64,000 nt of DNA from Chitinivibrionales bacterium (GTDB lineage Bacteria; Fibrobacterota; Chitinivibrionia; Chitinivibrionales; FEN-1185), in NCBI GenBank assembly GCA_035516255.1, contig DATJAL010000018.1, forward strand, positions 22,992 through 86,991, given 5' to 3'. Below, piece by piece: positions 1 through 57,476 of the stretch. Below the pieces are notes generated by a model. It made no database searches. It saw only the letters and a program-made list of their open reading frames with translations, and was not told where the DNA came from. The translations under genes were made by a program, and so were the position numbers. Each line of letters starts with the position of its first letter. The first letter of the stretch is position 1.

Positions 1-2
1 TT

Positions 3-1019
3 ATCAGCTTATTCAATCCGGCGTTCATTACTTCGCGTAAAGATAACTGGCAAAGCATGAACAGCCTTCCAGGCGTATCCCTTAACAATCAGACCTATAA
101 ATGGCCTGGAGCGGAGCTTTTTGCCGCCCAGGCCCGGGTGATTAACGGGACATTTGAGCAGCGCATCCTAATTCCAAAAAGCGTGACCTTGGATCAGAAC
201 GGGGCCAATCTTACGGCATATGCATGGAACGGGCCGACCATTGCAATGGGAGATAAAAAGGATTTTATTTTTCACGGATTCGGTCAATTACCTGTCAACG
301 ACACCACGGGGCCCACCATTTCGGTTCGGCCGGTGTATAGCAGCGGGTCGGCCGTCACCGACGCTTCGGCAAGCAAGGGCGCATCTTCCACCGACCGGAT
401 AATAGGCCCGCTCCCGTTGACTCTGGAAATCATGCTGTTTGATTCAAACGGCATCGACATCGTATCCACCGGCCCTGACGAAGGCATCACCTTTGAAGTA
501 CCTGGCGTGGTGGCGCGTACAAATATTAACTATAAATTCCAATTCGACCAAGGTGAATTCCGCAAGGGGGAGGCGAACTGGACATTCAACGACGGCGCGA
601 TATCGCCGGGCACCTATACCCTGAAGCTGAGCGCGCGGGACTTGCTGGGCAACGTTTCGAGGAAGAGCATCACCATAGAAATATCCGCGCCGCAGGAACT
701 GGCCCTGTATCACGTGTTTAATTACCCCAACCCGATGCGGATGGGCGAGTCGTGCAGGTTTTATTTCGACCTTTCACAGACAACCAGTCAATCGGCAGAC
801 GACAGGGTAAAGGTGTCCATACGGCTTTTTACGTTGTCGGGCCGTCTTGTGCGCGTTTTCAACGATATACAGCGCGGGGAGCTTTTTGACGGGAAAGACA
901 ATTTTAACAACCCGTTGTCGCCCGGCGTCTACCTGTACCAGATGATCGCTGTGGACAAGGTGCAGCAGAAAGTGGTGAAAAGCAAGATAGAAAAATTGGC
1001 GATCAATCCGCCGAGATAA
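3..1019 (+). CDS. 3' part of a secreted protein ending in a T9SS-type C-terminal sorting domain; 5' end outside window
   Basis: I translated nt 3-56 in the frame of the listed ATG (57) and found no stop, so the gene probably begins upstream of the window. The last ~100 aa (YPNPMRMGESCRFYF...LSGRLVRVF...SPGVYLYQMIAVD...KIEKLAINPPR) follow the CTD pattern shared by 7 other proteins here. Confidence 0.7.
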   Translation: MSLFNPAFITSRKDNWQSMNSLPGVSLNNQTYKWPGAELFAAQARVINGTFEQRILIPKSVTLDQNGANLTAYAWNGPTIAMGDKKDFIFHGFGQLPVNDTTGPTISVRPVYSSGSAVTDASASKGASSTDRIIGPLPLTLEIMLFDSNGIDIVSTGPDEGITFEVPGVVARTNINYKFQFDQGEFRKGEANWTFNDGAISPGTYTLKLSARDLLGNVSRKSITIEISAPQELALYHVFNYPNPMRMGESCRFYFDLSQTTSQSADDRVKVSIRLFTLSGRLVRVFNDIQRGELFDGKDNFNNPLSPGVYLYQMIAVDKVQQKVVKSKIEKLAINPPR

Positions 1020-4877: not shown

Positions 4878-7172
4878 CTAAGGAATCACCAAAAATTTGC
4901 CCCTACAGCTTTTGCCGTTGGCCGCAGCGGCCTGATAGAAATAGGTGCCGGGAATAATAATGCTGCCGGCATTGTTGGTTCCGTCCCAGATGATGATGGA
5001 TGTATTTTGATCCGAAAGGACGCGGACAAGCGTGCCTGACGCGTCATAGATGCGTACGCGCGGCGCAAGCGGGTTCAAAGCGGTAAACTTGATGGTATGT
5101 CTGTTCTTCAGCGTGGTGCGCGACACGGGGTTGGGAAACACGGTGACGCTCGAACCCGAGGCGCCGGGCGCAAGCGGGCCGCTGCCCGTTTCGAGCCGGT
5201 ACAGCCCTATGTCGCTGGCGATCCAGAAGGCGTTCTTGTTCTTGTCCAGGTAAATCCATTTGACGGCGGCGGTAAAGCAACCGCAGTTGGTGAGGTTGGT
5301 GAGGGTGGAATCAGGATCACTGTATGAGTAGATATCGTTGTCCTTGCAGAAAACAGGCTTTCCGTCCATTCCCAAGGTAATAGCGGAGAACAAGCTGCTG
5401 GAAGTGATCTTGTCGATTTTTGTCAAGTTCGATGTTTTATTATTAGTCACATGGTAGATGCCGTCCTCCGCAGAGATCCAGACAAGGGTATCGTTTGCCA
5501 CTGCAAATCCCTGGATCATGATGCTCGTGCCCGAAGAGCTCTTCCCGAAGTGATCGGTTGTTATCTGGGTGGACGGAGACGTCGGGTCATCTGAGGAATT
5601 ATAACTTAGGATGGTCATGCCGCCGCCGGTAAAATCTTCTTTTTTATTATATCCCAGATAAATGTATTGTTTGTTTTCCTGTTTGTTCCTATTGGCTGCG
5701 ACAAGGCCTGTATAGCTTGTCCAGAATCCGAGGCTGCTGTCGGCAAGATTGAAGGACCGCCAAATACTATTGTCGCGAGGCTTACGGACATGAAGGATAT
5801 TACCATTGTAAGCCTTTTGGTTTGCAATCCATATATTGCCCAGGGAATCCTCGCATGTGCCGGAGATAAGGCTCCAATACGACGTAACGATACCGTTAGG
5901 ATCGAGAACATTGGCATATCGCGCAATGGGAGTGAGAACGCCCCGGTTCGGATCGGCTGAGTCCTGGTAGGAAGCCCACGTGTTTTGGGAACGGTCATAC
6001 CATTTGACCCCGTCGGCAAACGTGCCGACCCAGAGGTCGTTTTTTGAAGTGACCGTTATTGAGTTTTTATACTGGGGCGGACAGGCCTCCAACCTGCCGA
6101 TGCTAGGGGTGTTGTCCATGGTGACGGCGTTCCACGTTTTTCCGTCAAAACCGCCTATCCCGTTTGTCAAGTCGCTCGGCACATACCACAGCATGCCGTT
6201 CTGGTCAACAGCGCACGCGTTAATGACGGAAGCGACAGGGCCGCTGATGGCGTTATTGACGACCTCGCCGGTGGCGGTGTTCAGAAGAAAAAAATAGGAA
6301 TACTGCGTCCCCACGACCACCCATGGCCCGGTGAAGGGCTCCACACACGTGACCGGGGAAGGAAACTGGTGAGCAAGGCCGCTGTTGGCAAAGAGCCGTC
6401 CGCTTGGAAGATAATAGGGCTTGCCGCCAATCACCACCGTGTCTACGCCGCCGTATTGCCAGGTGGTAGCGCCGATTTGTGATATTTTCTCGTTTGCAAA
6501 CACCAAGGTGTCGGCCTGTTTGATGATACCAAGAATGCCGCTGCCGGAATTGCAGGTCCAGATGGAGGGATCGGAAAAGTTCGCCGTTTTGATGTCCGGG
6601 ATGACGGCGGTGGCGACCCCATCTGTTGACACGATTGCAATGGTGTCGCCGAATACATGGATAGCGGAAACGTCGGTGCTCGAAAACGAGCCGAATTTCT
6701 TGACATTTTGAAAATTTTTCTGCGTGAGGGAAAAAACGCTGAGCCCCTTGGATGTCCCGATGAAAAGGCTGTTGCCGGACCTGAATATACATTCGATGTT
6801 CCATCCCGTCGCCTGCAGCGCGTTGAATGAGGTGAAGGCGCCGGTCTGGGGATGGAGGTTGACAAGGTACCCGTCGGCGCTGCCGAACCACAGGTCACCG
6901 GATGCGTCTTTTTCCCCAGCGGTAAGGTTGAGGTCGGGAAGATCGGACATCTCGGTGTACGTTTTCATGGTTTTGCTTGATTTATCGTAACGGACGACGC
7001 CTCCCGACGTCGCCAGCCACAGCACGCTGCCGCCGTCAATAATCGCATTGACCGCTTTGAAAGAGGCGAATTGCTTGAGAATGATACCGGAATGGCCGGG
7101 GGTGACGGCACACATCACCACCCCAATGCATAGGGCTCTTAGAGAGGTCCGTAATGGCCAGTTTTTTTTCAT
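4878..7172 (-). CDS. secreted beta-propeller repeat protein with T9SS-type CTD
   Basis: Signal peptide (LRALCIGVVMCAVTPGHSG). Recurring blades (LWFGSADGYL, LWVGTFADGVKWYD, FWIASDIGLYRLE) resemble two-component-regulator propeller (Reg_prop) repeats. C-terminus VFPNPV...IYDASGTLVRVL...WDGTNNAG...GTYFYQA...GKFLVIP. Confidence 0.75.
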   Translation of the reverse strand: MKKNWPLRTSLRALCIGVVMCAVTPGHSGIILKQFASFKAVNAIIDGGSVLWLATSGGVVRYDKSSKTMKTYTEMSDLPDLNLTAGEKDASGDLWFGSADGYLVNLHPQTGAFTSFNALQATGWNIECIFRSGNSLFIGTSKGLSVFSLTQKNFQNVKKFGSFSSTDVSAIHVFGDTIAIVSTDGVATAVIPDIKTANFSDPSIWTCNSGSGILGIIKQADTLVFANEKISQIGATTWQYGGVDTVVIGGKPYYLPSGRLFANSGLAHQFPSPVTCVEPFTGPWVVVGTQYSYFFLLNTATGEVVNNAISGPVASVINACAVDQNGMLWYVPSDLTNGIGGFDGKTWNAVTMDNTPSIGRLEACPPQYKNSITVTSKNDLWVGTFADGVKWYDRSQNTWASYQDSADPNRGVLTPIARYANVLDPNGIVTSYWSLISGTCEDSLGNIWIANQKAYNGNILHVRKPRDNSIWRSFNLADSSLGFWTSYTGLVAANRNKQENKQYIYLGYNKKEDFTGGGMTILSYNSSDDPTSPSTQITTDHFGKSSSGTSIMIQGFAVANDTLVWISAEDGIYHVTNNKTSNLTKIDKITSSSLFSAITLGMDGKPVFCKDNDIYSYSDPDSTLTNLTNCGCFTAAVKWIYLDKNKNAFWIASDIGLYRLETGSGPLAPGASGSSVTVFPNPVSRTTLKNRHTIKFTALNPLAPRVRIYDASGTLVRVLSDQNTSIIIWDGTNNAGSIIIPGTYFYQAAAANGKSCRGKFLVIP

Positions 7173-24900: not shown

Positions 24901-25187
24901 TCGGGACAATTACTTCCAGTGGGTCCGTGCAGCCGTGCTTAGCTGCCCTCGGAGATACGTGTTATGTTTCGTATGCCAGTTACCCGGACTATACTGGCGG
25001 TCCTGTTTATGTTAAAAAAATCGTTAATGGCTCCCTTAAAAATGTGCCTGAAGTAAGTCCTGATGGACTCGCTATCGCAGGCACTTTCAATTACTCCTGG
25101 GTTGAAGTTGGCAATGGAATCGTGTATGCTGCGGGAAGGGACCAAAGTTCCGGGGTAATTTCTTTGATGAAATACGTTAAGCAATAA
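21954..25187 (+). CDS. large exported adhesin-like protein: putative-Ig/cadherin-like region, 5 tandem Ig-like repeats, HYR/DUF5011-like Ig domain, AT-richer C-terminal repeat region
   Basis: ATG 21954 is preceded by AGGGGA and gives MRTIRSLSLLAVSFASLVFLTC (lipobox-like). The track start 21870 is less likely. Five repeats each contain (I/M/L)(S/T)YQWY. DVTPPVIILKG...WTEPG..AWDDRDG matches the Ig-like domain type seen in surface proteins. Confidence 0.8.
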   Translation: MRTIRSLSLLAVSFASLVFLTCTGQENPFKPSDATVTPELENSAGQSGTTISDSVGKPVKIILLAYLPSYIDSVKVIVANTTTADTDTVRVFNKGTVWTDTQIVNIIFRTAGTRTVTIIVFAGGTEKTSTVSIDIAAKPVPNHRPALVVTGLLNITTAQTCSLSLSVRDSDTGQTHLFTLVKGPKGATFTDSIFRWTPPAGFTGTDSAVFSVTDNGAPPLSDTATEYITVSESLSLQITAPLPAATNVAQGGSTALTVAVSGTAPISYQWYYNGAAIGGATGNSYSKTWGASDGGYYKIVVSNAKGKDSSTTQVTVCPRITAGLGPSTSIAINSATALSVTAAGTPPMSYQWYRNDTAISGATTGSYSKTWAASDGGVYKVIVSNGAGSDSSETAVTINSSITTPLPGITGVKQGSSFALSVVATGTPPITYQWYYNNVVIIGATSASYSKTWGAGDGGIYKIVVTNGIGKDSSSTQLIVAPVITSTLGATTNMSQGGNTALSVSATGTAPLSYQWYLNDVSISGATLSAYSKTWGATDGGVYKVIVGNAAGSDSSHTTLNVGVVISPRLGAKTSFNQGSSGQLSVTATGTAPITYQWYFNGNQISGAASSSYSKTWQYADSGTYKVMATNAAGTDTSSTVVAVKDVTPPVIILKGSLDTTIAIGSTWTEPGDSAWDDRDGVITNKIKVTGGPVAVSASGKFTLAYNVSDTAGNAATVKMRTVRVVGWELVNNTGITINSYDGFAMKLVNNNLYIAYVDNSDIKTYVKKLNGNSWDLVGGGAVDALEANMVSLAVSSDGTTPYIGYVSTQTNKATIVSRLQGGTWQTIFTSQYDYTWSNFADVEISPTGGIYLVNDLSNNSNPVITSLMKYNTVSGQMVPTDTLSGGIYRNYYQTEKDYHVLAFASDGTPYITYRGPGGFTIKKKPGTSWIGAGATAADSIFDVAYSAPLQTVFSNNNLFVLVSSDGANPTVYNLKAGSWTNLGTITSSGSVQPCLAALGDTCYVSYASYPDYTGGPVYVKKIVNGSLKNVPEVSPDGLAIAGTFNYSWVEVGNGIVYAAGRDQSSGVISLMKYVKQ
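22650..23890 (+). repeat. 5 tandem coding repeats, period ~246-249 bp (82-83 aa Ig-like units)
   Basis: The YQWY-encoding sites recur near 22757, 23005, 23251, 23497 and 23743. Stretches such as ggcggagtttacaaagtgatagt and gcaggaagcgactc are shared between units 2 and 4. Confidence 0.8.
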
Positions 25188-26419: not shown

Positions 26420-26451
26420 AAAAAAGGCCCTCTCTTCATAGAGAAGGCCTT
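26420..26451 (-). terminator. rho-independent-type terminator of the gene at 26478-28019
   Basis: Minus-strand RNA AAGGCCUUCUC-UAUGAA-GAGAGGGCCUU (11 bp, one G-U pair), followed by UUUUGUUU. Confidence 0.6.
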
Positions 26452-26477
26452 TACACGCATTTCAAGAAATCTTACTC

Positions 26478-28019
26478 CTACCTGCTGAGTACCAACTCTC
26501 CGGACGTCACGGTCTTCTGTCCCTTGATCCTCACAATGTAATTGCCAGCTTGAACAAGGCTTCCAGAATTGGTCCTGCCGTCCCAGACGATGTGGTTGCT
26601 ACCCGGATTGACGGCAAGCTTGCAGACACTTCTTCCCATAACGTTGAAGACCTCGGCATGCTGCACGGTTTCTCCTTCAGAAAGATTTATCGAAGTGGTG
26701 ATAGACCTGATTCCGCTGCCGGAAACAGAGACTTGAACTATGCCTTGGCGGGAAAGATGCGGATTCTCCCTGACTTCAGTCGAAATTGGCCAAGTAGAGG
26801 CGTCAACAAGCCCTTTTCCGGCGCCGGTTTGCGCGGTCATAAGCGTGGTTATGTCCGCCGCCGTGTAGCCGTAGATGGTTACGAACTTATCAACTATGGC
26901 CGTATTCCATGCGGGATACGCACTACCCGAATGATATTTTTGATCCCTGATCTTAATTGTTGCAGCATGATCAACGGCGCCCGCAAAGGTACCCATCACA
27001 ATGGAACGCTGGTCAGCGCCATCGCTGACACTGCCGCTCCACTGCCCCGGGTCGCCCGCCCACATACAGTCCACTATGCAGAGCTGTGCTTTTGCAGGAT
27101 AGGAAGTGGGAATATTTCCAACGACGTAGTCGCAGGAGTTGACGTACATGAGCGCCCAAATCCCGAGATCGGCGGCAGGACTATCAGAGTTACTGGGATC
27201 TCCACCTGTGTGCCCGAAGTCGATTGTCTGCTTGTTATTCTTCTGGCACATCGTAACGCCGCTGTACTCCCAATAGCGGTCATGGCCCTTGTTAACGGCG
27301 CAGTTCACTAAGATGTCGACTCCGTTGATGCTTGATGTTCCAGAGGCGTTATTCAGATTGCCCGTGAAATTAGGAAGACCGGCCGGAAACTGCACTGTCA
27401 CGCCGCCCGTACCTCCCCCGAAAACAACGCCTGTCGGGATGGGTTTGCCTGCGCCGACATAAGTCGACTTGTTGAAAGGACCGGCGTTACCACCGTCATA
27501 AATACAGATGTTTGCCGGCAGCATACCCTTGCCGATAAGCACGTTGCATACTTTTGCCACAACGGCAACAGACGGAAAAAGACCGGAAAAAGTATTCACC
27601 TTTATCGCAGCTTTTGCCGTTGCCCACGTTTTACTGGACGGAATCTTGAAAATTGTGTTCCATGCGGTAGTAATGTCATGCGTATTTGCAAGCGCGCATG
27701 CCAGCTTGTCCATGTCTGTTGCGACGACTGAGTAATTCACCACCGCATCAGTTGTATTTGCGGCTGGACTGGGATTATTGAATCCATCCCACTGCGGCCA
27801 ATGGTGGTTGGCATTCATCACGGCTTGGTCCGTTATCCACGCGACGCGAAGATTGTCGATATCCTGATTGATCGGCGTCGTGCTGAGGTTCACTAGGGTG
27901 GTGTTGATAGGTGCCGCAGCGGCCTTTTTCGCGCCAGGTCCAATCATGGCCAAGCCGACCGCACTGGCAGCCGATGCCTTCAAGAAGTTTCTCCTACTTT
28001 CCAAGGTTTTCTTGCTCAT
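26478..28019 (-). CDS. Tat-signal DUF362-like protein with T9SS-type CTD
   Basis: Near-perfect twin-arginine motif (ESRRNFLKASAASAVGLA). Core AAIKVNTFSG...ILVNCAVNKGHD aligns with the DUF362 blocks of 31671-32576 (VLKANMG...LINVPTAKSHD) and 33262-34752 (IGIKVNTLGG...LINVPVLKDHA). C-terminal CTD: VFNVMGRSV...VWDGRTNSG...GNYIVRIKG...LVLSR. Confidence 0.8.
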   Translation of the reverse strand: MSKKTLESRRNFLKASAASAVGLAMIGPGAKKAAAAPINTTLVNLSTTPINQDIDNLRVAWITDQAVMNANHHWPQWDGFNNPSPAANTTDAVVNYSVVATDMDKLACALANTHDITTAWNTIFKIPSSKTWATAKAAIKVNTFSGLFPSVAVVAKVCNVLIGKGMLPANICIYDGGNAGPFNKSTYVGAGKPIPTGVVFGGGTGGVTVQFPAGLPNFTGNLNNASGTSSINGVDILVNCAVNKGHDRYWEYSGVTMCQKNNKQTIDFGHTGGDPSNSDSPAADLGIWALMYVNSCDYVVGNIPTSYPAKAQLCIVDCMWAGDPGQWSGSVSDGADQRSIVMGTFAGAVDHAATIKIRDQKYHSGSAYPAWNTAIVDKFVTIYGYTAADITTLMTAQTGAGKGLVDASTWPISTEVRENPHLSRQGIVQVSVSGSGIRSITTSINLSEGETVQHAEVFNVMGRSVCKLAVNPGSNHIVWDGRTNSGSLVQAGNYIVRIKGQKTVTSGELVLSR

Positions 28020-28065
28020 ATCTTTCCCCTCCAGATAAAGTTTTAATATTTATAAACAGTTTTTT

Positions 28066-28656
28066 CTATTGCACTATTATCGAATGAAAGTAATTCATGA
28101 ATGCGCTGGCATCCGGTAACGCAAGACCGCTGGAAGTATACTTTGTAAATTGCATCTCAATATAAAAATTGCTGAAATGACCGTATGCGTAAATCGAAGA
28201 ACCATTATTTGTGTAAAACGCATCGGAAATTAAGTAGGGCGCCAAAGCGGATTCCGGTTCCCATGAACTGCCCTGCACCTTTCCGGCAAATATCGTCTGG
28301 GAATTTGCGGCGGTTCCATATTCAATTACTAGCATCTTGACACGCCCGGTATCCGTTGCTGACATGGCCTTGAACATGAACCTTTGAAATCCTTCTTTAA
28401 GAGTGCTGTTAAGGCATGTGCCGCAGTAGGTACTGCTACCGCCATCCACATAGTTGTAAATTGATGTGTCAACAAAATTGTCCATGCTGTCGGATACCCA
28501 CCCTGCTATTTGATTTGTTATAATAAGACTCGATAAAGGGACTGAGGTAGTTCCAGGCGAGGTCGGCCCGCACAGGGAGAAGTTAAGTCCTAAAAAGCAG
28601 GTTGTACCGAAAAGAGCCAGGAAAAGACCTTTTAATAACCTTCGTTTCATGAACAC
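28066..28656 (-). CDS. small lipoprotein, paralog family member A (unknown function)
   Basis: Signal/lipobox (LGLNFSLCG). Shares IAGWV...IYNYVDGGSSTY and the ending ...IIVQ with 28892-29482. Confidence 0.65.
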   Translation of the reverse strand: MFMKRRLLKGLFLALFGTTCFLGLNFSLCGPTSPGTTSVPLSSLIITNQIAGWVSDSMDNFVDTSIYNYVDGGSSTYCGTCLNSTLKEGFQRFMFKAMSATDTGRVKMLVIEYGTAANSQTIFAGKVQGSSWEPESALAPYLISDAFYTNNGSSIYAYGHFSNFYIEMQFTKYTSSGLALPDASAFMNYFHSIIVQ

Positions 28657-28891: not shown

Positions 28892-29482
28892 TTATTGGAC
28901 AATTGCCTTGTATGTATCCAAAAACTTCAAGGCCTCTGGAACAGCAATGGTGGAAATTTGAGAAACCGTAAAACCCATGACATAAAATTCAAAATATAAT
29001 GCGCCGAATGTGGCGTATACATGGATGCCTCCGCCGACCACTGATGCCTGTGCTTCATTATCGGAATATTGGCCAAGGGTGACCTTAGTTGTAATATTTA
29101 CCGCGACTTGTGCGTCATACAAGGCCTTGGCTTTTGCCGTTGTGCCATAGTTATGGACATATCCGTTGAATGCATAATCACCATTGAGCGGTGAAGCAGT
29201 TGGCCCCCCATTCATTTTTTCATGGAACCATGAGACAAGACCAGAGTCTTTATACACCTGGGCCGGGCCATCGATGTAGTTAAAGAGGCTTTCGGGAGGA
29301 TATTGGACAAAATGGCTACTCGAATCCGGGACCCAGCCTGATATTTGTGAAGTAAAATAAAGGTCTTGCAGCTTGGTCTGCGGATTTGTTCCTTTATCGC
29401 CGCAATTCCATACCAGAGCAACGCAGACAATAATAAATATTGTAATTCCGCCCCAATACTGGATTTTTCGAGAATTATTCAT
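28892..29482 (-). CDS. small lipoprotein, paralog family member B (unknown function)
   Basis: Lipobox-like ALVWNCG. ISGWV...LFNYIDGPAQVY. Same length (196 aa) and same C-terminal ..IVQ as member A. Confidence 0.65.
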   Translation of the reverse strand: MNNSRKIQYWGGITIFIIVCVALVWNCGDKGTNPQTKLQDLYFTSQISGWVPDSSSHFVQYPPESLFNYIDGPAQVYKDSGLVSWFHEKMNGGPTASPLNGDYAFNGYVHNYGTTAKAKALYDAQVAVNITTKVTLGQYSDNEAQASVVGGGIHVYATFGALYFEFYVMGFTVSQISTIAVPEALKFLDTYKAIVQ

Positions 29483-29670: not shown

Positions 29671-31383
29671 CTATTCAGTAAATCCCTTTGGCAGCTCTTC
29701 CCCGGAAGAAGGAATGGCGTTCTGCGGTTTGGGCGTGGCCTGGTTTTCCGAGCCGCGGGATTTGACCGTGCCTCCTGCCTCGCCGCCCGATCCCATGGTC
29801 TCGGCGCTGATCTGGTTTTCGGCGGCAGATTCCTTGATCTCCCGGAGGACTTTCCTTTTCTCCGTGATGTAAGAACCGTTCTTTTTTCTGTCTTCACCGA
29901 TTGAATACACTTCGATCGCGGCCCGGCCGTACACCGGGCAAGCTTTTTCGCAATATCCGCAGCCGATGCACTTGTCGTCCATCACGAACGGTCGCTTGAA
30001 CGGCCCCTTGAAATTGTCCACCACCATGGAGTCGATCGCATGGATGGGGCAGATTTCGGCGCAGATGAGGCAGAGCTTTTCCTGCTCCCACGCTATGCAG
30101 CGGTGGCGGTCGATCACGGCGGTGCCGAGCTTGACAAACTGTTTTTCGGGAAGGGGCAGGGCGCGGATGGCCTGCGTGGGGCACACGTGACCGCACATGT
30201 TGCATTTGTCCTCGCACGGGCCCTTGCGCGGCACCAGGTGCGGCGTCCACAGGCCGTCGAACCCGCATTCGAGGTCGGCGGGCTGGAGGCCGTTGGTCTT
30301 GCAGGTCTTCATGCATTCGCCGCAGCGAATGCAGCGCGCAAGGAACTCGTGTTCGGGCAGGGAGCCGGGCGGCCGGATGAAACGGCCGTTGATGTTGCGC
30401 GGGGCGTTGAGGCCGGCTTTTGCCGTGGCGGCCAGCACAAGGCCGGCGAACGCGGACTGGATGAACCCGCGGCGCTCGATGCTGAGCGAGGCGTTCCCCG
30501 TTCCGGCGCCGAATGAGGCAAACCCAACGGTAATGGCGTTTTTCTTGCATCCGTCAATGCAGTCGCCGCACAGCACGCATTCGGACAGCACGGTGTGCCG
30601 CGGGTTGAGGTCAACGGCGCGCATGTCGCATTTCGCGGCGCAGACCTTGCAATCAATGCACCGCTCATCGTTCACCTTGCGTTTGATGATGCCGAAACGG
30701 GAGAACAGCGATAGGAACGCACCCGTGGGGCACACGTACCTGCACCAGAAGCGCTTGCGCCAGAAATTCGCCGCAATGATCGCGGCAAGGAACACAAATG
30801 AGGCCACGCCTGTTGAGAAAAAATACCGGTGGAAACTGAACTGGGTAAAGGAGTCGAACCCCATGGCAAGCAGCATGGGGCGGACAAGATCAATCGCGCC
30901 GTTGAAGAGCCATATCATGGGAGGATACAGTACCAAGGCAAAGGACCGCGGCGCAATGGACATGGGGCTCAAGAAAGCGAGGAGGTTCGCGCCCAGCAGG
31001 GAGCTGAACAGGACGCCGATGAGGACGTAATATTTTATCCTCCGGTTGGGCTTGGGTTCAACGGACTCCTTTTTGTGTTTTTTTCCGTGAATGAGAAAAT
31101 CCGAAACGTCAATGAGGGTGCCAAGCGGGCACACGTAGCCGCAGAAAAACCTGCCCAACACGATGGTGAGAACGAGCAGCACCCCGGCCCACAGCATGGT
31201 GGCGATCACTGCGCGCGAACCGATCATGGCAACGGTCGCCACGAGCGGATCGAGCCGCAAAAAGGCGTCCACCGGAAATTTCGCGGCATAGGGGTACATG
31301 GTGAAAATAAACAGCAGAATGAAAATGCCGAAGAAAACGGCTTGCGTGACGCGGCGGAAGGTCGAGAGTTTCATGGATTTCAA
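29671..31383 (-). CDS. membrane polyferredoxin, NapH-like N-terminal half fused to NapG/MauM-like tetra-cluster half
   Basis: Hydrophobic helices carry two CX3CP motifs (CGYVCP, CRYVCP). Ferredoxin motifs: CIDCKVCAAKC, CVLCGDCIDGC. Internal ERRGFIQSAFAGLVLAATA, then CIRCGECMKTC, CEDKCNMCGHVCP, CLICAEICP, CIGCGYCEKACP. Low-complexity C-terminal tail. Confidence 0.85.
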   Translation of the reverse strand: MKSMKLSTFRRVTQAVFFGIFILLFIFTMYPYAAKFPVDAFLRLDPLVATVAMIGSRAVIATMLWAGVLLVLTIVLGRFFCGYVCPLGTLIDVSDFLIHGKKHKKESVEPKPNRRIKYYVLIGVLFSSLLGANLLAFLSPMSIAPRSFALVLYPPMIWLFNGAIDLVRPMLLAMGFDSFTQFSFHRYFFSTGVASFVFLAAIIAANFWRKRFWCRYVCPTGAFLSLFSRFGIIKRKVNDERCIDCKVCAAKCDMRAVDLNPRHTVLSECVLCGDCIDGCKKNAITVGFASFGAGTGNASLSIERRGFIQSAFAGLVLAATAKAGLNAPRNINGRFIRPPGSLPEHEFLARCIRCGECMKTCKTNGLQPADLECGFDGLWTPHLVPRKGPCEDKCNMCGHVCPTQAIRALPLPEKQFVKLGTAVIDRHRCIAWEQEKLCLICAEICPIHAIDSMVVDNFKGPFKRPFVMDDKCIGCGYCEKACPVYGRAAIEVYSIGEDRKKNGSYITEKRKVLREIKESAAENQISAETMGSGGEAGGTVKSRGSENQATPKPQNAIPSSGEELPKGFTE

Positions 31384-31670: not shown

Positions 31671-32576
31671 TTATACTATCTTCACGTCCATTTTTTCCAC
31701 GTCGATTTCGCCGAGACCCATGGCGTAGGCGTTCTTAATGTGCTTGACCTGGTTGCCCTTGAATTCCTTGTTGTACCAGCGTGCAATGCCCACGGTGTAG
31801 GAATCCGCGGCAACCGGGTCTGCGCTTGCCACTACCGTATTGAGCTCGTCGGTTTTTCCCGGGCCGCTCGGACCGTTGGTGACCAGCGCGTATACGGCGT
31901 TGACAATAGTTAACGTCGGCTTGATAACGAGCAAAAGGTCGGCAATGGCCTGGTTGAGCTCCACCTGCTCGTGCATGAACTGGCGGTCCCACACCAATCC
32001 CATGAGGTTTTTGATGCCCAGGCTCACGCCGGTTGCGTCATGCGATTTTGCCGTGGGAACGTTGATGAGGCAGTTCGCGCGCAGCACCTCCTTGGCAATG
32101 GCCGTGGTCTTGAGCTGCTTGCCGTTCGGAATGGGGGTGTCCTGGTAGAACTTCTGGTCTTCGAGAAGCGCCACCACCACGCCTTTGAGGCTTTCAACCG
32201 CTGCTCCGATGCCGCTTTTTTCCTTGCAGACTTTCCCGTCGCGCAGGGGATGGTCGATCACGATCACGCGCTGCGCTCCCGCGTCGAGGCAGAGCTGGGC
32301 GGTTGCCTTGACGATTTCCGGGTGCGTGGTAGTACCCCATTCGGGCGGGTTGGGGAAGCCCATGTTGGCCTTGAGCACCACGCGGTCGCCCAGTTTCACG
32401 AATTTCTTCATTCCGCCGAGCGCATCGACCGCTTTCTTCACCAGCTCTTCGGGCTTGCCCTTTGCAACCGCGACAAGCGGCTTTTTATTGTCTTGGGCCA
32501 GCACGGGAACAGACGCCAATGCGGCGCCCGCGGCTGCCGCGCTTCCTGTTTTGAGAAAATCTCTGCGCGATATCAC
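31671..32576 (-). CDS. Tat-signal DUF362 domain protein
   Basis: MISRRDFLKTGSAAAAGAALA (twin-arginine). DRVVLKANMGFPNPPEWGTTTHPEIV...RVIVIDH...CLINVPTAKSHDATGVSLGIKNLMG...ADPVAADSY is the canonical DUF362 layout. Confidence 0.85.
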   Translation of the reverse strand: MISRRDFLKTGSAAAAGAALASVPVLAQDNKKPLVAVAKGKPEELVKKAVDALGGMKKFVKLGDRVVLKANMGFPNPPEWGTTTHPEIVKATAQLCLDAGAQRVIVIDHPLRDGKVCKEKSGIGAAVESLKGVVVALLEDQKFYQDTPIPNGKQLKTTAIAKEVLRANCLINVPTAKSHDATGVSLGIKNLMGLVWDRQFMHEQVELNQAIADLLLVIKPTLTIVNAVYALVTNGPSGPGKTDELNTVVASADPVAADSYTVGIARWYNKEFKGNQVKHIKNAYAMGLGEIDVEKMDVKIV

Positions 32577-32707: not shown

Positions 32708-33265
32708 TCATTCGACTCCGATTTTCTTGTCAATGTTCCAGTAAAACTGCTTTGCCATGTTGAGCGCGAAGTCGGATTTCTCGGTGGTGGATATCCTGAG
32801 GAATATGCTCTGTTTGGCGTACTGGATGGTGTACGAGGTTGCCTGGGAAAGGTCCACCACGACGATGGGGTTCTTCGTGCTTATCAGATCGGGCGAGGTG
32901 GGGTAGAAGAAGTTGAAAAGGTCAAGCGCGTTTTGCTCGGTGCCCTGATTGAAAATCGCCACGTTGATGTCGATGCTGCCGTTGCTGTACAGCTGCACCA
33001 CGCCCTCCTGGAACCCGTAGGTGATGTAAGTCTGCGCCGCGCCGTCGATGGCGGCATAAATCGACTGCTCGTCGGTCATGGTGGAGACGCTGCCTTTCTT
33101 GACAAATCCGCTTATGTCGTTGTCGATGGGCAGATAGTCGGCCGGGTCGGCCCCTGCGCCGGGATCCTTGCTGATGCGGCATTGGGAGAGAAATATCAGT
33201 GGAAGCGCAATTATTGCGATACGGTAAACGGGAGATCTGAAACTTGTAAAGCCAAACGCGTTCAT
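32708..33265 (-). CDS. small lipoprotein, paralog family member C (divergent)
   Basis: Lipobox-like LIFLSQC. ISGFV...IYAAIDGAAQTY matches the family motif. The start overlaps the upstream stop (ATGA at 33262-33265). Confidence 0.6.
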   Translation of the reverse strand: MNAFGFTSFRSPVYRIAIIALPLIFLSQCRISKDPGAGADPADYLPIDNDISGFVKKGSVSTMTDEQSIYAAIDGAAQTYITYGFQEGVVQLYSNGSIDINVAIFNQGTEQNALDLFNFFYPTSPDLISTKNPIVVVDLSQATSYTIQYAKQSIFLRISTTEKSDFALNMAKQFYWNIDKKIGVE

Positions 33266-34752
33266 ACGAGGGAAACCTTCCCCGAAACGAAATTGGTGGA
33301 TCCAAGATTGTATTGAATGGCGGCATCCAAGATGTGCCGCGCATCGGACTGATTCGGGTTAGTGCTTTGCGTCCAGGAGATTTCCGGAAGGGTGGGCGCG
33401 TATTTGGCCCGTAATGCATTAATTGTTTTCAAAGCCCATGTATCTATCGCCACCGGATCAGTGCCTACGACAATAGAATTTGGTTGGCATGTGGGCGGCC
33501 CGTCTGGCCCTCCCGAAAAGCATCCCTGGAGCGCGTCTCCGACAATGAGAGCAAGCTTGGATGCGCCGGTTCTTGCATTCGGTATTGCTCTAACGGCTTG
33601 ATACAGGGCAGGGATCGACGGACTGCACATCGTGTCATGGAGCGTCGCCGGGCCGTTCCAAATGTCGGTAATGCCGTAAAGGTTCTTCATCGAGAATGAT
33701 ATTCCGGACTGCGCATGATCCTTGAGCACCGGAACGTTGATCAGAAAGTCAACGGCTTCGAATATGGCGGTTAGCCTTTTGTCTGTGCCGGCGATGTTGA
33801 CGGTGGATCCCCACAAAGCGGAACCCGGCTCCTGCTGACTTACAGGAACACCATCATTGAGCGTGGTGTTGAAGCTGGCCGACGCGATCCGGCTGGTTCC
33901 TTTCACGTTTCGCAAGGGAAACCCGGCCGCCGCCATCTGAGAGCCCGGAGCCCTGTCGTCGAAAATAATGATTTGGTACGCCGGGAACGTTCCGCCAAGC
34001 ATTGCTGTCAAACTGCTTACGATGGCGGTTACAACCTCTGGCCTCGTACTCACATTTGACCCGCCGAGGGTGTTGACTTTGATTCCTATAAGCGAAGATG
34101 CAGTCAACCCCGGGAACAGCGATTCCCACGCGGCCGTTGCGACCGCCGGATCCTGGGTGCTTCCCGAGGGAATTGCGCCGTTGTCAATCTGCATCTGTGC
34201 GACCGCCGCGTCAATCATCGACTTCAACAGGGTCGCCTGAATATTCGGTTTTCCAATGGTGCCCGTGTTGACGGTGGCATTGGTGACAGGATACACATGC
34301 GACGGCTTCTGAATTGGAACAAGCAGACGATCGGACGGCGGGCTTTGGTTTCCCATCTGGCCATTTGGCCCGGTAACGGGACTGGAGTCGACTGCCCTCA
34401 CTGTGTAAGCGCAGGTACTGCCTACGGCAAACCCACTGGCATCCACGAAACCCGGATTGGTTACCTGTGCAAGCAGGGTGTCGTCGCGGTACACATCATA
34501 CGCACGGATTCCAGTCCACAACTTTGCTCCCGTAACATCGGTAAGGGGCCTGTCCCAGGTGATCATGACCGAATCGACGGCTCCGGAATCGCTTGTGGCC
34601 AAGTTGTAAGACAAACCTGTCGGCGCGGCCGGCAGCCGGATATCCGGCTCAACGACTGTTCGCTTATCGCAGCTTGCGAGAACGCCTATTCCTGCTGCTG
34701 CCTCAAGCGAATTGATCAGGAACTTCCTTCGGTTGATTTTCTTTGCATTCAT
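33262..34752 (-). CDS. Tat-signal lipoprotein with FN3-like module and DUF362-like domain
   Basis: INRRKFLINSLEAAAGIGVLASC (RR motif plus lipobox). The FN3-like stretch is PTGLSYNL...ITWDRP...YDVYRDD...YTVRAVDS. DUF362 blocks: IGIKVNTLGG, LINVPVLKDHAQSGISFSMKNLYG, TDPVAIDTW. Confidence 0.8.
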   Translation of the reverse strand: MNAKKINRRKFLINSLEAAAGIGVLASCDKRTVVEPDIRLPAAPTGLSYNLATSDSGAVDSVMITWDRPLTDVTGAKLWTGIRAYDVYRDDTLLAQVTNPGFVDASGFAVGSTCAYTVRAVDSSPVTGPNGQMGNQSPPSDRLLVPIQKPSHVYPVTNATVNTGTIGKPNIQATLLKSMIDAAVAQMQIDNGAIPSGSTQDPAVATAAWESLFPGLTASSLIGIKVNTLGGSNVSTRPEVVTAIVSSLTAMLGGTFPAYQIIIFDDRAPGSQMAAAGFPLRNVKGTSRIASASFNTTLNDGVPVSQQEPGSALWGSTVNIAGTDKRLTAIFEAVDFLINVPVLKDHAQSGISFSMKNLYGITDIWNGPATLHDTMCSPSIPALYQAVRAIPNARTGASKLALIVGDALQGCFSGGPDGPPTCQPNSIVVGTDPVAIDTWALKTINALRAKYAPTLPEISWTQSTNPNQSDARHILDAAIQYNLGSTNFVSGKVSLV

Positions 34753-34889: not shown

Positions 34890-37800
34890 TTAGAAGAGCG
34901 CCGTTGCCTTCAGCTCGGCCATGTTATAATTCAATACCTTCTGGTCGAACAAATAGTCCACTTCCAACAGCAAACGTAAGAAGAAATTAGCCCCTGCCTT
35001 CACCTGTATGTCGAGCTTGTTCTGCCATGCCTTGTCATAGCTCCTGAATGAATAATTCGCCCCGTTTGAAAGCATGGCTCCTATATAATATTGAGTTCGC
35101 CATTCCCTGATTACTTTTCCCTGAATGCGCCAGTCGAACAGGATCCCTGGTGTGATGGTGTTGAGATAGCCGGTCACGGTGTCCCTGGTGATATTGGTGC
35201 CAAGGTTGGTGAATGTGGAGTCCAGGTTCTGCCAGAGGATGTCCACCGTGGATTCAGTCCTAAGGTTCGGCACCCACCGTTCGGTCCACTTTATTCTGAA
35301 TTCATCCTGGTAGTTCTTGAGCGCAAACGTGTCGAGCTTTTGCGTGTAATCCGGCATATGTAAGTTGTCGAAAAACATGTTGAAATCGATGTCGAACCTG
35401 GTTTTCCTTTCTCTAAAGGCAAGACGCGCCTCGTTGTACCATTTGAGGCCGTCGTCGGTTGCGAGGGTGAAATTCGTTGAGTTCGTTTTCTCCAGCCTGC
35501 TGTCGAAATGAAGGTCTTGTGAAAAATCAAATATAGGCTTAATAGAGTAAGTTTGATTTAATGTATTCGTTCTTGTTTCGATTGTATCGGGTATTAACTC
35601 CAGGGAATCCCCGTTGGAAAATCCATATCCCAGGTTGAGCTGAAACGGGTTGAGAAACGTCAGGTAGACCCCGGGAACAAGAAGCAGGCTTCCATTTACC
35701 AGGTTCGCGGTTGTTGTTATCCGATCATCCGATGCAATGACGTTTTCCGAGGTTTGCAGCTGGTAATCGCCGTACAGGGTGATACCGGGGATCAGTTCCT
35801 GGGAAAAAAGTTTGAATTCGGGCCGCAATGTGTTCCCTCTATAGTCCATTGCCCCGTTAAGACTATCGCGGCCCTGAAAGATCCTGAAAACGCTCTTGGT
35901 TTCGAGCTGCAATTTTTTAAGGGGAGAAAACCTGATCCAGGCAAAAATATTATGGTCGAGCTTCTGATCGAACCGCGACTGCAGGTCGTAGGTGCCGGGT
36001 GCCGCGCCGGGGACAATGTTCGTGTCAACCGAATCGGTGAGGAGGTTGACGGAATACGAAGCGTCGAGCCATATCCTGTCGAGCACCTTGAAGGTGCGGC
36101 CCCATTCGGTCTCGATGATGCCGTTCCACCGGTCGGACCTCAGGGAATCGCGGTCGCCGCCGGGCAGGGAATCGCGCGTCAGGCGGGTGTAGTTTCTCAT
36201 GTCCTGATGCATGCCGAACAGCCTGAGCGACGGGATGTCCGGCGGCGAGATGAGATACTGCGCATACTCCCTTACCTCGCTGCCGCACGAGGCGTCGGTC
36301 ATATTCGCTCCCACCGTGATGGGCATGTACTGTTTCCAAACGTCCCAAACCAATTCGCCCTGCTCCTGGTGGTTGATCCTTCCGTACACCGAATTCTGGT
36401 CGGCGAGGGTGACGTAGTCGGGCGTCTCGTACATTCCCGAGGCCTTGAGCTTGAGGTTGTGGGCCACGGAGTACAGGTCGAGTTTCGCCGCGGTCCCCTG
36501 TTTTGTCACGAGAATGGAATCGTTGTAGCTCCCCGACACCTCGGGCACGGCCCTAAGATACAGTTTGCTGTCGGCGGATTTCATCTCTATCTTGCTGTTC
36601 ACGCTGCCGGCAAAGTCGCGGTTGTAAACGCTGTCGAGGCCGTTGCGGCTGGGCTCCTTGAACCCCCGGTACGCGCCGTTGACGCCCAGCGCGACCTTGT
36701 CGCTCAGCTCCACGACATTTTCGGCCGCGGCCATCTGGTTGGTGTATACCCCGATGGTGGGCTGGTACTGGCACGAGACCTCGATGCGGGAGTCGGGGTT
36801 GGCCAGCCCCTCGTTCTTGAACGTGAGCAGGCCCATGGTCCGCTCGATGCTGTAGTCGCTCGGGTCGACGAGCTGTCCGTCAACCAGGATCTGCACGCTC
36901 TCGGTGACGATGTTCTCCACGCCGAGCTCGTAGAAGTTGTCTTCACGGAAGGGAATGAGCTTCCTGAAATACTCGGCCTTGCCGAAGCCCGCCCACAGGC
37001 CGGTGTTGACGCGGCGCAGCTTCTTGTCGCCCACGCGGTCGCCGAACTCCGCGCGGACGCCCGCGCCCTCGAGGTAGGTGGGGTTAATGAGCGAGCTGTA
37101 GAAATAGTCGGTCTTCTGGTCGGTGCGCCAGCCGATCCTGCGCAGGTTGTCGTCGCCGAACCCGCGGTATTCGGCGCCGTAACGCAGGTCGCCGAGCGGG
37201 TCGGTGTTGTCGTAGGTGGCGCGCAGCGTGCGGCCGTTGTTCAGGTCGGCGTTGAGGTTGAGGTTGGCCTTTGCCCATCCGTACAAAAAGTCCTTGTAGG
37301 TCGCCACGGTGTCGACGGGCGCGCGCGTGATGGCGCCGCCCGCGGCCGTGTCGTAGGCGTACACGACGGAGTCGAGGTTCTTGTTTGTCAAATAGTTGCC
37401 GATGCTCGTGGCGAGCGGCGCGGGAAACTCGGCCTTGTTTTCGACCTTGTATTCGGCGGTGCCGCGGAGGTTCAGGCTCTGGCCGCCCGGCGCCTCAACG
37501 CCGAGCCCGGTCTCGTCCATGTGCCCCTTCCACTTGGGCTTCTGCCCGCCGCCGGCCACCTTGATCTGGGTGGCGTACCAGAGGTCCTGGTCGGTTTTCA
37601 AATAGGAGAACGTGGTGCCCTTTCTGCACAGCGTGGTCTGGCCCGAGGTGTACACCTCGTCCTGTACGTCGTCGCTGAGGCCGTCCACCGACGTGTAGGT
37701 TTTCCAGAGCCGCTTGTCCTCGTCGAACGAATACACGCCGTCGGACGTGGCAAACCATTCGGTGGTCCCGGAGGTGGAGAGCGAATACACCGTTTTCTTC

Positions 37801-38609
37801 TCGATGGGCATGTTGCGCGAGAAGTTTTCCCAGGTCTGGTTCTTGCCGTTGAACCGCGCCACGCCCTCGGGCGACATCACCCAGATGTACGACGCGTCGA
37901 CGAGCATGTAGTTGACCGCCGAACCCACGATGCCGTTGTTGAGCGGGTAGGAGTTCCATGCCTTCATGGCGATGGAGTAGCGCGAGAAGCCCTTGTCGGT
38001 CTCGGCCCAGATGTAGTCGCTGAAGCTGAAAAGCCTGAACACCGTGTTCGAGATGAGCCCGGTGCCCGCGGTGTAGCTTTCCCATTTCTCGAATTTCTTG
38101 TCAAAGTAGAATACGCCCTGGTCGGTGGCCACCCACAACTGGGCCTGGTTGGAGTATAGGTCGTAGATGCGCTTGCCCGCAAAATCCCCCATGGGCTCCC
38201 ACTGCATCACCAGCTTGTTGAACCGAGCCAGGCCGTGCGGGCCCGCCGCGTACACGTAGTCGAGGTCGGCCACGAGCCTTACCACGGTGTCGGACGGCAT
38301 GCCCTGCTTTGCCGAATAGGGTTTCCAATCGAGGTACCGCATGTCGGCGTAGAGCGCGCCGCGGTTGGTGCCCACCCACAGTTCCTTGTCGTCAAGGCAC
38401 AGGTCGTTCACGGCCTCGGGCCTGATGTTGCCCCATGCCTCGTTTTCGGTCTGGAACCGTTGCAGGCCGAAGTCGGTGCCCCACCATACCGAGTTATCAT
38501 ACTGGAAAAACAGTTGGCGCGGCGGGGGAGTGGCGGCGAAGAGGCCGCACAACATGCCCGCACCCGTGATCAAAAGGATTTTTTTTATGACCGCTGATGA
38601 ATAAGACAT
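34890..38609 (-). CDS. very large envelope protein: N-terminal propeller repeats + long probable outer-membrane beta-barrel
   Basis: ATG 38609 gives the signal-like MSYSSAVIKKILLITGAGMLCGLFAA; the track start is 38693. There are five blades of the type LWVGTNRGALYAD / LWVATDQGVFYFD / IWAETDKGFSRYS / IWVMSPEGVARFN / EWFATSDGVYSFD. About 850 aa of Y/G/N/D/T-rich alternating sequence then end in ...ELKATALF (C-terminal Phe, as in OM barrels). Confidence 0.7.
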   Translation of the reverse strand: MSYSSAVIKKILLITGAGMLCGLFAATPPPRQLFFQYDNSVWWGTDFGLQRFQTENEAWGNIRPEAVNDLCLDDKELWVGTNRGALYADMRYLDWKPYSAKQGMPSDTVVRLVADLDYVYAAGPHGLARFNKLVMQWEPMGDFAGKRIYDLYSNQAQLWVATDQGVFYFDKKFEKWESYTAGTGLISNTVFRLFSFSDYIWAETDKGFSRYSIAMKAWNSYPLNNGIVGSAVNYMLVDASYIWVMSPEGVARFNGKNQTWENFSRNMPIEKKTVYSLSTSGTTEWFATSDGVYSFDEDKRLWKTYTSVDGLSDDVQDEVYTSGQTTLCRKGTTFSYLKTDQDLWYATQIKVAGGGQKPKWKGHMDETGLGVEAPGGQSLNLRGTAEYKVENKAEFPAPLATSIGNYLTNKNLDSVVYAYDTAAGGAITRAPVDTVATYKDFLYGWAKANLNLNADLNNGRTLRATYDNTDPLGDLRYGAEYRGFGDDNLRRIGWRTDQKTDYFYSSLINPTYLEGAGVRAEFGDRVGDKKLRRVNTGLWAGFGKAEYFRKLIPFREDNFYELGVENIVTESVQILVDGQLVDPSDYSIERTMGLLTFKNEGLANPDSRIEVSCQYQPTIGVYTNQMAAAENVVELSDKVALGVNGAYRGFKEPSRNGLDSVYNRDFAGSVNSKIEMKSADSKLYLRAVPEVSGSYNDSILVTKQGTAAKLDLYSVAHNLKLKASGMYETPDYVTLADQNSVYGRINHQEQGELVWDVWKQYMPITVGANMTDASCGSEVREYAQYLISPPDIPSLRLFGMHQDMRNYTRLTRDSLPGGDRDSLRSDRWNGIIETEWGRTFKVLDRIWLDASYSVNLLTDSVDTNIVPGAAPGTYDLQSRFDQKLDHNIFAWIRFSPLKKLQLETKSVFRIFQGRDSLNGAMDYRGNTLRPEFKLFSQELIPGITLYGDYQLQTSENVIASDDRITTTANLVNGSLLLVPGVYLTFLNPFQLNLGYGFSNGDSLELIPDTIETRTNTLNQTYSIKPIFDFSQDLHFDSRLEKTNSTNFTLATDDGLKWYNEARLAFRERKTRFDIDFNMFFDNLHMPDYTQKLDTFALKNYQDEFRIKWTERWVPNLRTESTVDILWQNLDSTFTNLGTNITRDTVTGYLNTITPGILFDWRIQGKVIREWRTQYYIGAMLSNGANYSFRSYDKAWQNKLDIQVKAGANFFLRLLLEVDYLFDQKVLNYNMAELKATALF

Positions 38610-38802
38610 GGATTTCCGGACTGACAAAGATGGTTTAACCGGCGAACGTAAAAACAAAAATGAGCCAAAACCGGTTAAATGGGATCTTTTCACTGCGCGC
38701 GTTCAACAAACTCAGTTCGGTGTACGGGGGGCATAACCGGAACCATCAAACGGCAAATAAAATATATGAAAATACGGGGGGGTTCAATATAGTTGTCTAA
38801 AA

Positions 38803-54946: not shown

Positions 54947-54974
54947 GGCTTCTCCCCCGAAAGGCGTGAAATTC

Positions 54975-56504: not shown

Positions 56505-56519
56505 TGTTGAGCTCCCCTA

Positions 56520-57356: not shown

Positions 57357-57476
57357 GTTCCCCCTCTTCCTAAAAACATGAAAATGGTTTTAAAATTGTG
57401 TCACCGAATTGACGGTTTGGAAAAAAAGAGGGCCCTGCTTGGCCCCCTTTTCTTTCCATTTTAATAATGCTCCCGC

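Follow-up and report, generated by a model that had tools for sequence, protein, structure and literature searches.

A twin-arginine signal and a type IX-like C-terminal domain are conserved together in a putative DUF362 protein family of Fibrobacterota

Organization of the locus

We examined 64,000 nucleotides (nt) of contig DATJAL010000018.1 from a Chitinivibrionales bacterium of the phylum Fibrobacterota (assembly GCA_035516255.1, positions 22,992 to 86,991), a stretch hereafter called the window. A sequence-only reading had proposed that one of its proteins bears both a signal for twin-arginine translocation (Tat) and a C-terminal domain (CTD) of the kind that sorts type IX secretion system (T9SS) cargo. 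The open reading frame (ORF) concerned, 26478..28019, had been reported without its strand; it lies on the minus strand, starting at 28019 and with its stop side at 26478, and encodes a protein of 513 amino acids (aa), hereafter the target, composed of a Tat signal, a DUF362-like domain and a C-terminal tail. It is the last gene of a co-directional cluster of eight. A ribosome-binding site, GGAGGGG, can be read from the sequence at 28026..28032 (minus strand) with the ATG 6 nt downstream, and the cluster is closed 26 nt past the target stop by an intrinsic-terminator-like hairpin with a stem of 13 base pairs followed by a T-run (26423..26452, minus strand). A mis-called start codon was rejected, being disfavoured by the ribosome-binding site, by the 46 nt that separate the target from the gene upstream and by the conservation of the N-terminus. 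The NCBI record of the identical protein (P0001), from a Chitinivibrionales metagenome-assembled genome, is titled 'twin-arginine translocation signal domain-containing protein'.

On the minus strand, the gene divides into a Tat signal peptide (aa 1-35, 27915..28019), delimited by Tat models, conservation and hydropathy; a passenger domain, predicted to be a divergent DUF362 or LarA-fold alpha-beta domain (aa 36-415, 26775..27914); a flexible linker (aa 416-426, 26742..26774); and a C-terminal immunoglobulin (Ig)-like seven-strand beta-sandwich (aa 427-513, 26481..26741). The twin-arginine motif itself, S8-R9-R10-N11-F12-L13-K14, occupies 27978..27998 and was delimited by its conservation in 60 homologues. 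An AlphaFold2 model of the whole target (predicted local distance difference test, pLDDT, 88.7) shows four parts, namely an N-terminal helix (aa 1-35) of low confidence over aa 1-32, an alpha-beta domain that is well folded (aa 37-415), a linker modelled with low confidence (aa 416-423, pLDDT below 50) and a beta-sandwich of seven strands (aa 427-511). Were the target cleaved by a sortase, the linker at aa 416-426 would likely be the region of the cut, judging from this model.

The N-terminal signal

The N-terminus of the target, MSKKTLESRRNFLKASAASAVGLAMIGPGAKKAAAAP, agrees with the earlier quotation, and the Tat consensus [ST]-R-R-x-F-L-K recognized there is indeed present in full, as SRRNFLK. 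The signal is laid out as MSKKTLE-SRRNFLK-ASAASAVGLAMIGPGA-KKAAAA-P, in which MSKKTLESRRNFLK forms the n-region, ASAASAVGLAMIGPGA the h-region and KKAAAA, with its AxA site, the c-region. Taken by itself, the target sequence has a borderline Tat score: it narrowly passes model TIGR01409 (TAT_signal_seq) with 17.1 bits for a cut-off of 16.7, and obtains 20.7 bits with the Pfam TAT_signal model (PF10518), under the cut-off of 22.7. The assignment is settled by the family. Across 60 aligned full-length homologues (29-80% identity), R9, R10 and F12 never vary, while L13 and K14 show at least 90% conservation; TIGR01409 matches 52 of these sequences at E<=0.01, and eight of ten relatives scanned individually pass its cut-off (18.7-29.1 bits). 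The arginine pair is found in every family protein whose N-terminus is intact (187/187, one of them reading RRKSL), and 141 of these 187 combine it with the CTD, while no tail-bearing member among them has a Sec-type signal. Because this conservation is family-wide, a chance motif or a Sec signal is unlikely.

The h-region is also weakly hydrophobic. The best 12-residue Kyte-Doolittle mean is 1.78 in the target and averages 1.63 +/- 0.22 over the family, compared with 2.2-3.2 in the window's six Sec-type tail proteins. A Lys or Arg stands shortly before the cleavage region in 61 of 72 relatives, the target having KK ahead of AAAA. Low hydrophobicity and charge in the c-region are the classical 'Sec-avoidance' traits that keep Tat signals out of the Sec pathway. 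By all sequence criteria tested, the case for a Tat-type signal is thus strong, and the target would be expected to use Tat.

The C-terminal domain

The tail consists of the last 87 residues, again in agreement with the sequence quoted earlier. It stands at the extreme C-terminus, running up to the stop codon after the low-confidence linker, and is basic (pI 9.6) as opposed to the acidic passenger (pI 5.6). Its motif can be written G462 ... W479-D-G481 ... G486 ... G492-x-Y494, with R513 as terminal Arg. Modelled by itself, the tail has seven strands (pLDDT 94.4), and Foldseek places the translocon-bound T9SS substrate CTDs 8glk_D and 8gl6_D first (probability 0.97-1.00); 8glk_D is the NucA CTD in the Flavobacterium johnsoniae T9SS translocon (probability 1.00), and the RemA, PorU, PorZ and RgpB CTDs come next. 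The T9SS type A CTD has been described as a compact seven-strand Ig-like beta-sandwich at the extreme C-terminus (PMC11285876), and the CTD of Fibrobacter succinogenes as basic and absent from mature cell-envelope proteins (PMC6851124). T9SSs have been reported in Fibrobacter and Chitinispirillum.

The same tail type recurs within the window. A CTD profile built from the family matches six other window proteins, each match ending at the stop codon: 57477-58340 (minus strand, E 5e-11), a PorZ-like protein at 4878-7172 (minus, E 9e-11), 53447-54946 (minus, E 3e-10), 54975-56504 (minus, E 5.5e-8), 56520-57356 (minus, E 6.5e-8) and a PorU homologue at 57-1019 (plus, E 1.6e-4). The family profile was required for this result, as phmmer, run on the window ORFs with the single sequence of the target tail, recovered the PorZ-like protein alone. 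The CTD had been claimed for seven other proteins, which holds for these six and fails for 48818-51640, where the profile gives a non-significant E of 0.76 and model TIGR04183 only 20.1 bits. The eight tails of the window align with an invariant G, G and Y and are all basic (pI 9.6-10.4), and the tails of the target, the PorU homologue and the PorZ-like protein have in common the motif I[FY]..G.LVR ... W[DN]G ... G.Y ... R. This tail type is attached to unrelated passengers of the window, including discoidin, propeller and DUF362 domains.

Two of these proteins are homologues of T9SS attachment components. The first, at 1..1019 on the plus strand, is the 3' part of a homologue of the T9SS sortase PorU whose frame is open to the window edge (NF033707, 138 bits, model positions 804-1094); its tail passes TIGR04183 with 31.3 bits. 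The second is the PorZ-like protein (4878..7172, minus strand), which obtains 90 bits with NF052228 for a cut-off of 260, carries a Sec-type signal and has a tail that passes TIGR04183 with 27.4 bits. The remaining four matches are tandem minus-strand genes at 53447-58340 (499, 509, 278 and 287 aa), each coding for one or two F5/8 type C (discoidin, NedA-like) domains, with a Sec-type signal and the same basic tail. The protein at 48818-51640 (minus strand, 940 aa), the least convincing of the seven 'other' CTD proteins, combines a hydrazine-synthase-alpha middle domain (PF18582, 64.5 bits) with PD40/TolB-like propeller repeats.

The passenger domain

The description of the passenger as DUF362-like holds at the level of profiles and not in Pfam, where the DUF362 model (PF04015) gives no match to the target even at E<1. 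Precomputed PF04015 matches exist for about 30 of 83 homologues. Aligned by hhalign, the family matches a 496-aa DUF362 paralogue of the same cluster with a probability of 96.4% (E 1.3e-9, 210 columns) and a 301-aa paralogue with a probability of 69.7% (E 4e-5); the motifs K-x-H ... K-N and Q-L-x-I-V-D (Q-L-C-I-V-D) are those that align. Conserved passenger residues are N243-K244-G245-H246 ... K260-N261, together with D235, D317 and D350. Among solved structures, LarA-type nickel-pincer enzymes have the closest fold (9q3j, 9eia; Foldseek probability 0.94-0.97, TM score about 0.25), a match that fits the placing of DUF362 and LarA in one Pfam clan, CL0471 (PMC11770544). At profile level, the passenger is a divergent DUF362 domain with a putative LarA fold. 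LarA and the DUF2088 nickel-pincer-nucleotide racemases of CL0471 are its nearest structural relatives, although the likeness is weak (8-15% identity at that TM score), their cofactor residues are not alignable with the target and LarA enzymes are cytoplasmic.

An iron-sulphur (Fe-S) cluster was considered as the reason for Tat export and rejected, as only C314 is conserved in at least 90% of the family and no Fe-S motif is present. The 'cofactor-bearing' part of the sequence-only reading thus stays a conjecture.

The 301-aa paralogue (31671-32576) has around aa 170-185 the stretch K-S-H-D-A-T-G-V-S-L-G-I-K-N, with a His and a Lys 10 residues apart; a PDB sequence search with this protein gave no match at E<=10. 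The catalytic His174 and cofactor-tethering Lys184 of LarA (PMC11770544) have the same spacing, the two proteins not being alignable. In sequence terms, this spacing hints at a nucleotide-derived cofactor.

Distribution of the family

A profile search of 1.84 billion representative sequences returned 261 clusters at E<=1e-30. Counted over species-representative genomes, one per species, the tail-bearing form occurs at 40 loci, all from Fibrobacterota (Chitinivibrionales, Chitinispirillaceae, Fibrobacteria, Fibrobacter) save one, L014, whose record is titled 'uncultured bacterium'. Twin arginines without the tail are seen in some 25 homologues, which come from Myxococcota, other 'Deltaproteobacteria', Planctomycetota and Syntrophobacteria. 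Many of those from Myxococcota end instead in a Gly/Ser/Thr-rich linker, a 'GC..G' element, a hydrophobic segment and then RR (e.g., GAMLAFGAVVAAKLRRLVSGDDQSS). These lineage-specific tails suggest that the passenger takes up whichever surface-sorting device its lineage possesses.

The alternative tails of Myxococcota (L057, L060, L063-L068, L075, L084; P0082) resemble a -CTERM sorting tag; for the tail of P0082, the idea of a MYXO-CTERM tag found no NCBIfam model at E<=0.01.

In 1.35 Mb of homologous loci plus the window, seven other proteins combine twin arginines with the tail; all are further DUF362 paralogues, and the pairing was not found beyond the DUF362 superfamily in that sequence. 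A database search with a profile of the eight window tails, aimed at other passenger families combining Tat signal and tail, was uninformative, giving merely 10 short proteins, among which the same small proteins match both PF18962 and PF13860.

A putative Tat-then-T9SS route and its rivals

Both signals are present in the target and have been conserved as a pair, and they occur alongside T9SS genes and the cluster. From this we infer a route in which the use of Tat, the use of T9SS, cleavage of the tail, the surface location, any cofactor and the chemistry are all conditional: we think it probable that the target is a secreted DUF362-family protein that passes through Tat and then through T9SS. 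The target would fold in the cytoplasm, possibly with a cofactor or a partner, and its SRRNFLK signal would take the folded protein over the inner membrane through the Tat translocase. Signal peptidase I would remove about 35 residues, cutting after the KKAAAA region, upon which the folded, basic, seven-strand tail would engage the type IX system. Once the outer membrane is crossed, the PorU/PorZ attachment complex would swap the tail for a surface anchor, and the surface DUF362 would act as the outermost of three paralogues, the outer arm of a polyferredoxin/DUF362 system. A cell-surface arm of the neighbouring system, as the sequence-only reading had it, is a fair reading insofar as the target is conserved within the polyferredoxin/DUF362 cluster; its surface position follows from the proposed route.

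Several results weigh against such a route, beginning with the scores of the tail. The T9SS CTD score had been named beforehand as a result that could overturn the proposal, and it is formally borderline: the target tail obtains 20.9 bits with TIGR04183 and does not reach the cut-off of 23. None of ten further relatives scanned singly reaches 23 bits either (best 20.8), and 34 of 60 relatives match the model at E<=0.01. Pfam FlgD_ig gives 23.5 bits for a cut-off of 27, CHU_C 13.3 bits, and PF18962 no match on the target. Compared with solved structures, the tail profile is closest to FlgD Ig domains (1e-10 to 1e-8; best 7eh9, 1.1e-10), ahead of the T9SS CTDs of Porphyromonas gingivalis PorZ (5m11, 5.6e-4), RgpB (0.098) and PorU (0.27). 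The Foldseek E-values of the tail, at 1.5e-2 or above, are non-significant because the Ig fold is generic. The FlgD-type Ig domain is not solely a terminal tag, since giant proteins (P0196, 2295 aa; P0198, 4065 aa; P0212, 2194 aa) contain 14-21 tandem copies of it internally. Besides the tail, no Tat signal occurs in T9GPred's compilation of 102 experimentally verified T9SS cargoes, neither tatA nor tatC was noticed in the subset of window ORFs scanned, and no cofactor motif explaining a need for Tat was found in the target passenger. Of the T9SS components, only the PorU and PorZ homologues turned up in the window, where no search was aimed at SprA, PorV or PorKLMN.

Taken alone, the sequence and fold scores of the tail would allow it to be 'just an Ig domain', and this is the substance of the main rival explanation, in which the target is exported by Tat and stays in the periplasm, its Ig module being no secretion signal but a FlgD-type domain for binding, oligomerisation or docking, possibly onto the adjacent lipoprotein or the 1267-aa protein with an outer-membrane protein (OMP)-like end that opens the cluster. 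The proximity to FlgD (hook cap; PF13860; 7eh9, 3osv), the sub-threshold TIGR04183 scores of the target and all ten other relatives, the tandem repeats and the lack so far of an experimentally verified Tat-dependent cargo in the T9GPred set all speak for it. FlgD itself is a type III-exported flagellar scaffold with its Ig domain inserted inside a larger protein, and only the Ig-like segment matches, the FlgD equivalog models giving 18.2 bits on the target (230 required) and at most 36 bits on relatives. Against the periplasmic reading, the module is invariably the last domain, ending a few residues from the stop; its motif recurs in the tails of the PorU homologue and the PorZ homologue, which do pass TIGR04183; it is joined to unrelated passengers; it is basic, as are T9SS CTDs; and it is confined to a phylum that possesses T9SS, homologues elsewhere being tailless. 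We regard a periplasmic target as rather unlikely. A sorting role of the tail is well supported by the PorU/PorZ context, the shared tail profile, charge, fold and phyletic pattern, from which use of T9SS would follow. As a T9SS sorting domain, the tail stands on its position, size, fold and charge and on the motif of the PorU and PorZ tails, and falls short on the curated threshold and in its closer match to FlgD.

The two other explanations are minor. The target could be ordinary Sec-dependent T9SS cargo in which the arginine pair is tolerated, or vestigial from periplasmic DUF362 ancestors, with export by Sec or by either pathway. Some twin-arginine signal peptides are promiscuous. The sub-threshold Pfam TAT_signal score and the use of Sec by all described T9SS cargo would agree with this. 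Yet signal peptides evolve fast and would not preserve a vestigial motif in this manner, while RR-x-F is invariant over 29-80% identity and RR is present without exception, and the low hydrophobicity, the conserved Lys/Arg before the cleavage site and the absence of Sec-type signals from tail-bearing members point the same way, making this explanation very improbable. Very little credence is likewise given to a target that is exported by Tat and leaves the periplasm by another route, be it outer membrane vesicles or another outer-membrane system, for which the OMP-like protein of the cluster could be a dedicated pore. The conservation of this 1200-aa class of proteins with an OMP-like C-terminus in the cluster favours such an exit, as does the apparently different C-terminal tag of the Myxococcota homologues, since the passenger is then not bound to one export system; against it, nothing marks the 1267-aa protein as a translocon, and the target tail resembles those of PorU and PorZ.

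Comparison with known systems

That T9SS cargo normally enters the periplasm by Sec, as the sequence-only reading stated, agrees with reviews (PMC9127263, PMC7073777, PMC9251779), and T9GPred even takes 'no Tat signal' as a rule. No report of a Tat-dependent T9SS cargo was found in the full-text literature searched, outside which most subscription journals fall. The 'unusual two-step route' is thus unreported there and nevertheless less exotic than was implied, because T9SS already exports folded proteins (PMC9251779) and secretion by Tat and then by the type II secretion system (T2SS) is established in Pseudomonas (PMC4899797). By analogy, Tat upstream of T9SS is a mechanistically plausible two-step route. 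The Tat-dependent T2SS substrates, i.e., phospholipases and other exoproteins of Pseudomonas aeruginosa (PMC4899797), follow the same logic, Tat-folded cargo being handed to an outer-membrane system. They differ in that T2SS works with a pseudopilus and a secretin and recognizes no linear signal, whereas the target would use T9SS, a C-terminal sorting domain and sortase-type attachment. Tat-to-T2SS transfer being known already, what appears to be new here is the pairing of Tat with a T9SS-like tail in a protein family that keeps it phylum-wide.

Canonical T9SS type A cargo, such as RgpB of P. gingivalis and ChiA, RemA and NucA of F. johnsoniae, has like the target a cleavable N-terminal signal, a linker and a seven-strand Ig-like domain of about 80 aa. 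The G-x-Y of the penultimate strand is common to both, the target gene is also near T9SS attachment genes, and the translocon-bound CTDs of NucA and RemA are the best structural matches of its tail. Yet canonical cargo carries a Sec signal and comes from Bacteroidota, while the target has twin arginines, belongs to Fibrobacterota and ends in a sub-cut-off tail that is nearer to the FlgD Ig domain. Within the window, the PorU and PorZ homologues and the target agree in tail motif, basic pI and extreme C-terminal position and differ in that the former pass TIGR04183 and the target does not; the PorZ-like signal is of Sec type and the N-terminus of PorU lies outside the window. Periplasmic Tat-DUF362 proteins (PF04015), represented by 31671-32576 and by members from Myxococcota and Planctomycetota, have the twin arginines, the fold and the K-x-H ... 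K-N of the target without its C-terminal sorting domain, the Myxococcota versions having a Gly/Ser-rich linker and a hydrophobic tail. Extracellular DUF362 domains are known from the CBM9/dockerin fusions of lignocellulose consortia (PMC5742341), which put DUF362 outside the cell by a lineage-specific display device, as the target would. In those proteins, the device is the dockerin/cohesin pair of Gram-positive cellulosomes, and Tat or T9SS signals are unreported.

Current descriptions of T9SS and T9GPred alike assume unfolded entry by Sec, and candidates bearing a Tat signal are dropped by the predictor. The joint conservation of a Tat signal and a T9SS-like tail in this family suggests that T9SS, like T2SS, accepts cargo that was folded, and perhaps loaded with a cofactor, in the cytoplasm. 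If so, a broader range of enzymes could be displayed on cell surfaces of the Fibrobacterota-Chlorobiota-Bacteroidota (FCB) group, and a blind spot in secretome prediction would be exposed. A reporter carrying the signal and the tail would give a handle on how folded a T9SS substrate may be, and the DUF362/polyferredoxin cluster of Fibrobacterota is marked out as a multi-compartment system worth biochemical study.

The eight-gene cluster

The cluster, all on the minus strand, opens with the gene of the 1267-aa protein (34890..38693), which matches no family, has a propeller-like N-terminal half (weak Reg_prop) and an OMP-like end (...ELKATALF), and is kept as first gene, in the 1200-aa size class, in many Fibrobacterota loci. 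It is followed by a 496-aa DUF362 protein (33262..34752), predicted from its RRKFL and its lipobox LASC to be a Tat-exported lipoprotein; a 185-aa predicted lipoprotein with a weak DUF6599 match (32708..33265), whose gene overlaps the upstream gene by 4 nt; and the 301-aa DUF362 protein (31671..32576), which has a Tat signal without lipobox or tail and is predicted to be periplasmic. Next come a membrane polyferredoxin (29671..31383), NapH-like over aa 1-290 and NapG-like over aa 301-520 with an internal RRGFIQSAFAGLVLAATA between the two, and two 196-aa predicted lipoproteins with lipoboxes VWNC (28892..29482) and FSLC (28066..28656), the latter gene directly upstream of that of the target (26478..28019). 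The same gene set recurs at more than 20 loci in Fibrobacterota, around homologues whose identity is 27-54%.

The three DUF362 paralogues of the cluster all carry twin arginines and differ in the second cue, which is absent from 31671-32576, a lipobox in 33262-34752 and the tail in 26478-28019. Three destinations are predicted from these cues: periplasm, lipoprotein and surface. The two 196-aa lipoproteins are paralogous (E 1.6e-15 to each other), and a homologue adjoins DUF362 genes in many loci, some of them from Myxococcota (L006, L017, L022, L041-L049), which suggests that DUF362 protein and lipoprotein form an obligate pair.

In the polyferredoxin, the NapH-like module has two CxxCP motifs and two Fe-S motifs and the NapG-like module has four clusters. 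The internal twin-arginine stretch, SIERRGFIQSAFAGLVLAATAKAG, looks like a NapG Tat signal retained as a fifth transmembrane helix; if SIERRGFIQSAFAGLVLAATAKAG is such a retained signal, Sec and Tat would act together in inserting the protein.

A more far-reaching reading of the whole cluster, which we hold to be decidedly unlikely, is that of a cytochrome-free trans-envelope system in which a NapH-NapG polyferredoxin feeds, or is fed by, three LarA-fold DUF362 enzymes, one in the periplasm, one a lipoprotein on a membrane and one on the cell surface, the surface unit having to be loaded with a cofactor made in the cytoplasm and passed, fully folded, through Tat and then T9SS. The periplasmic Fe-S module of the polyferredoxin would cross the membrane by its internal twin-arginine segment, and the cofactor would be, for example, a nucleotide of the nickel-pincer type. 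T9SS would in that event serve to display redox or isomerase enzymes, with their cofactors, on insoluble substrates, chitin or lignocellulose for example.

Beside the cluster, on the plus strand, 21870-25187 encodes a 1105-aa protein with at least five Ig_2/I-set repeats (QWY..G..I.GAT...Y) and a Bact_surface_Ig-like domain, without the C-terminal tail; a 1631-aa homologue lies in the same place beside the cluster at locus L004. Further along the window, 12082-15198 (plus strand) encodes a 1038-aa lipoprotein of the Fibrobacter succinogenes family TIGR02171, in keeping with an origin in Fibrobacterota, with an FGE-sulfatase domain, which also resembles GldK/PorK (64.6 bits, far under the cut-off).

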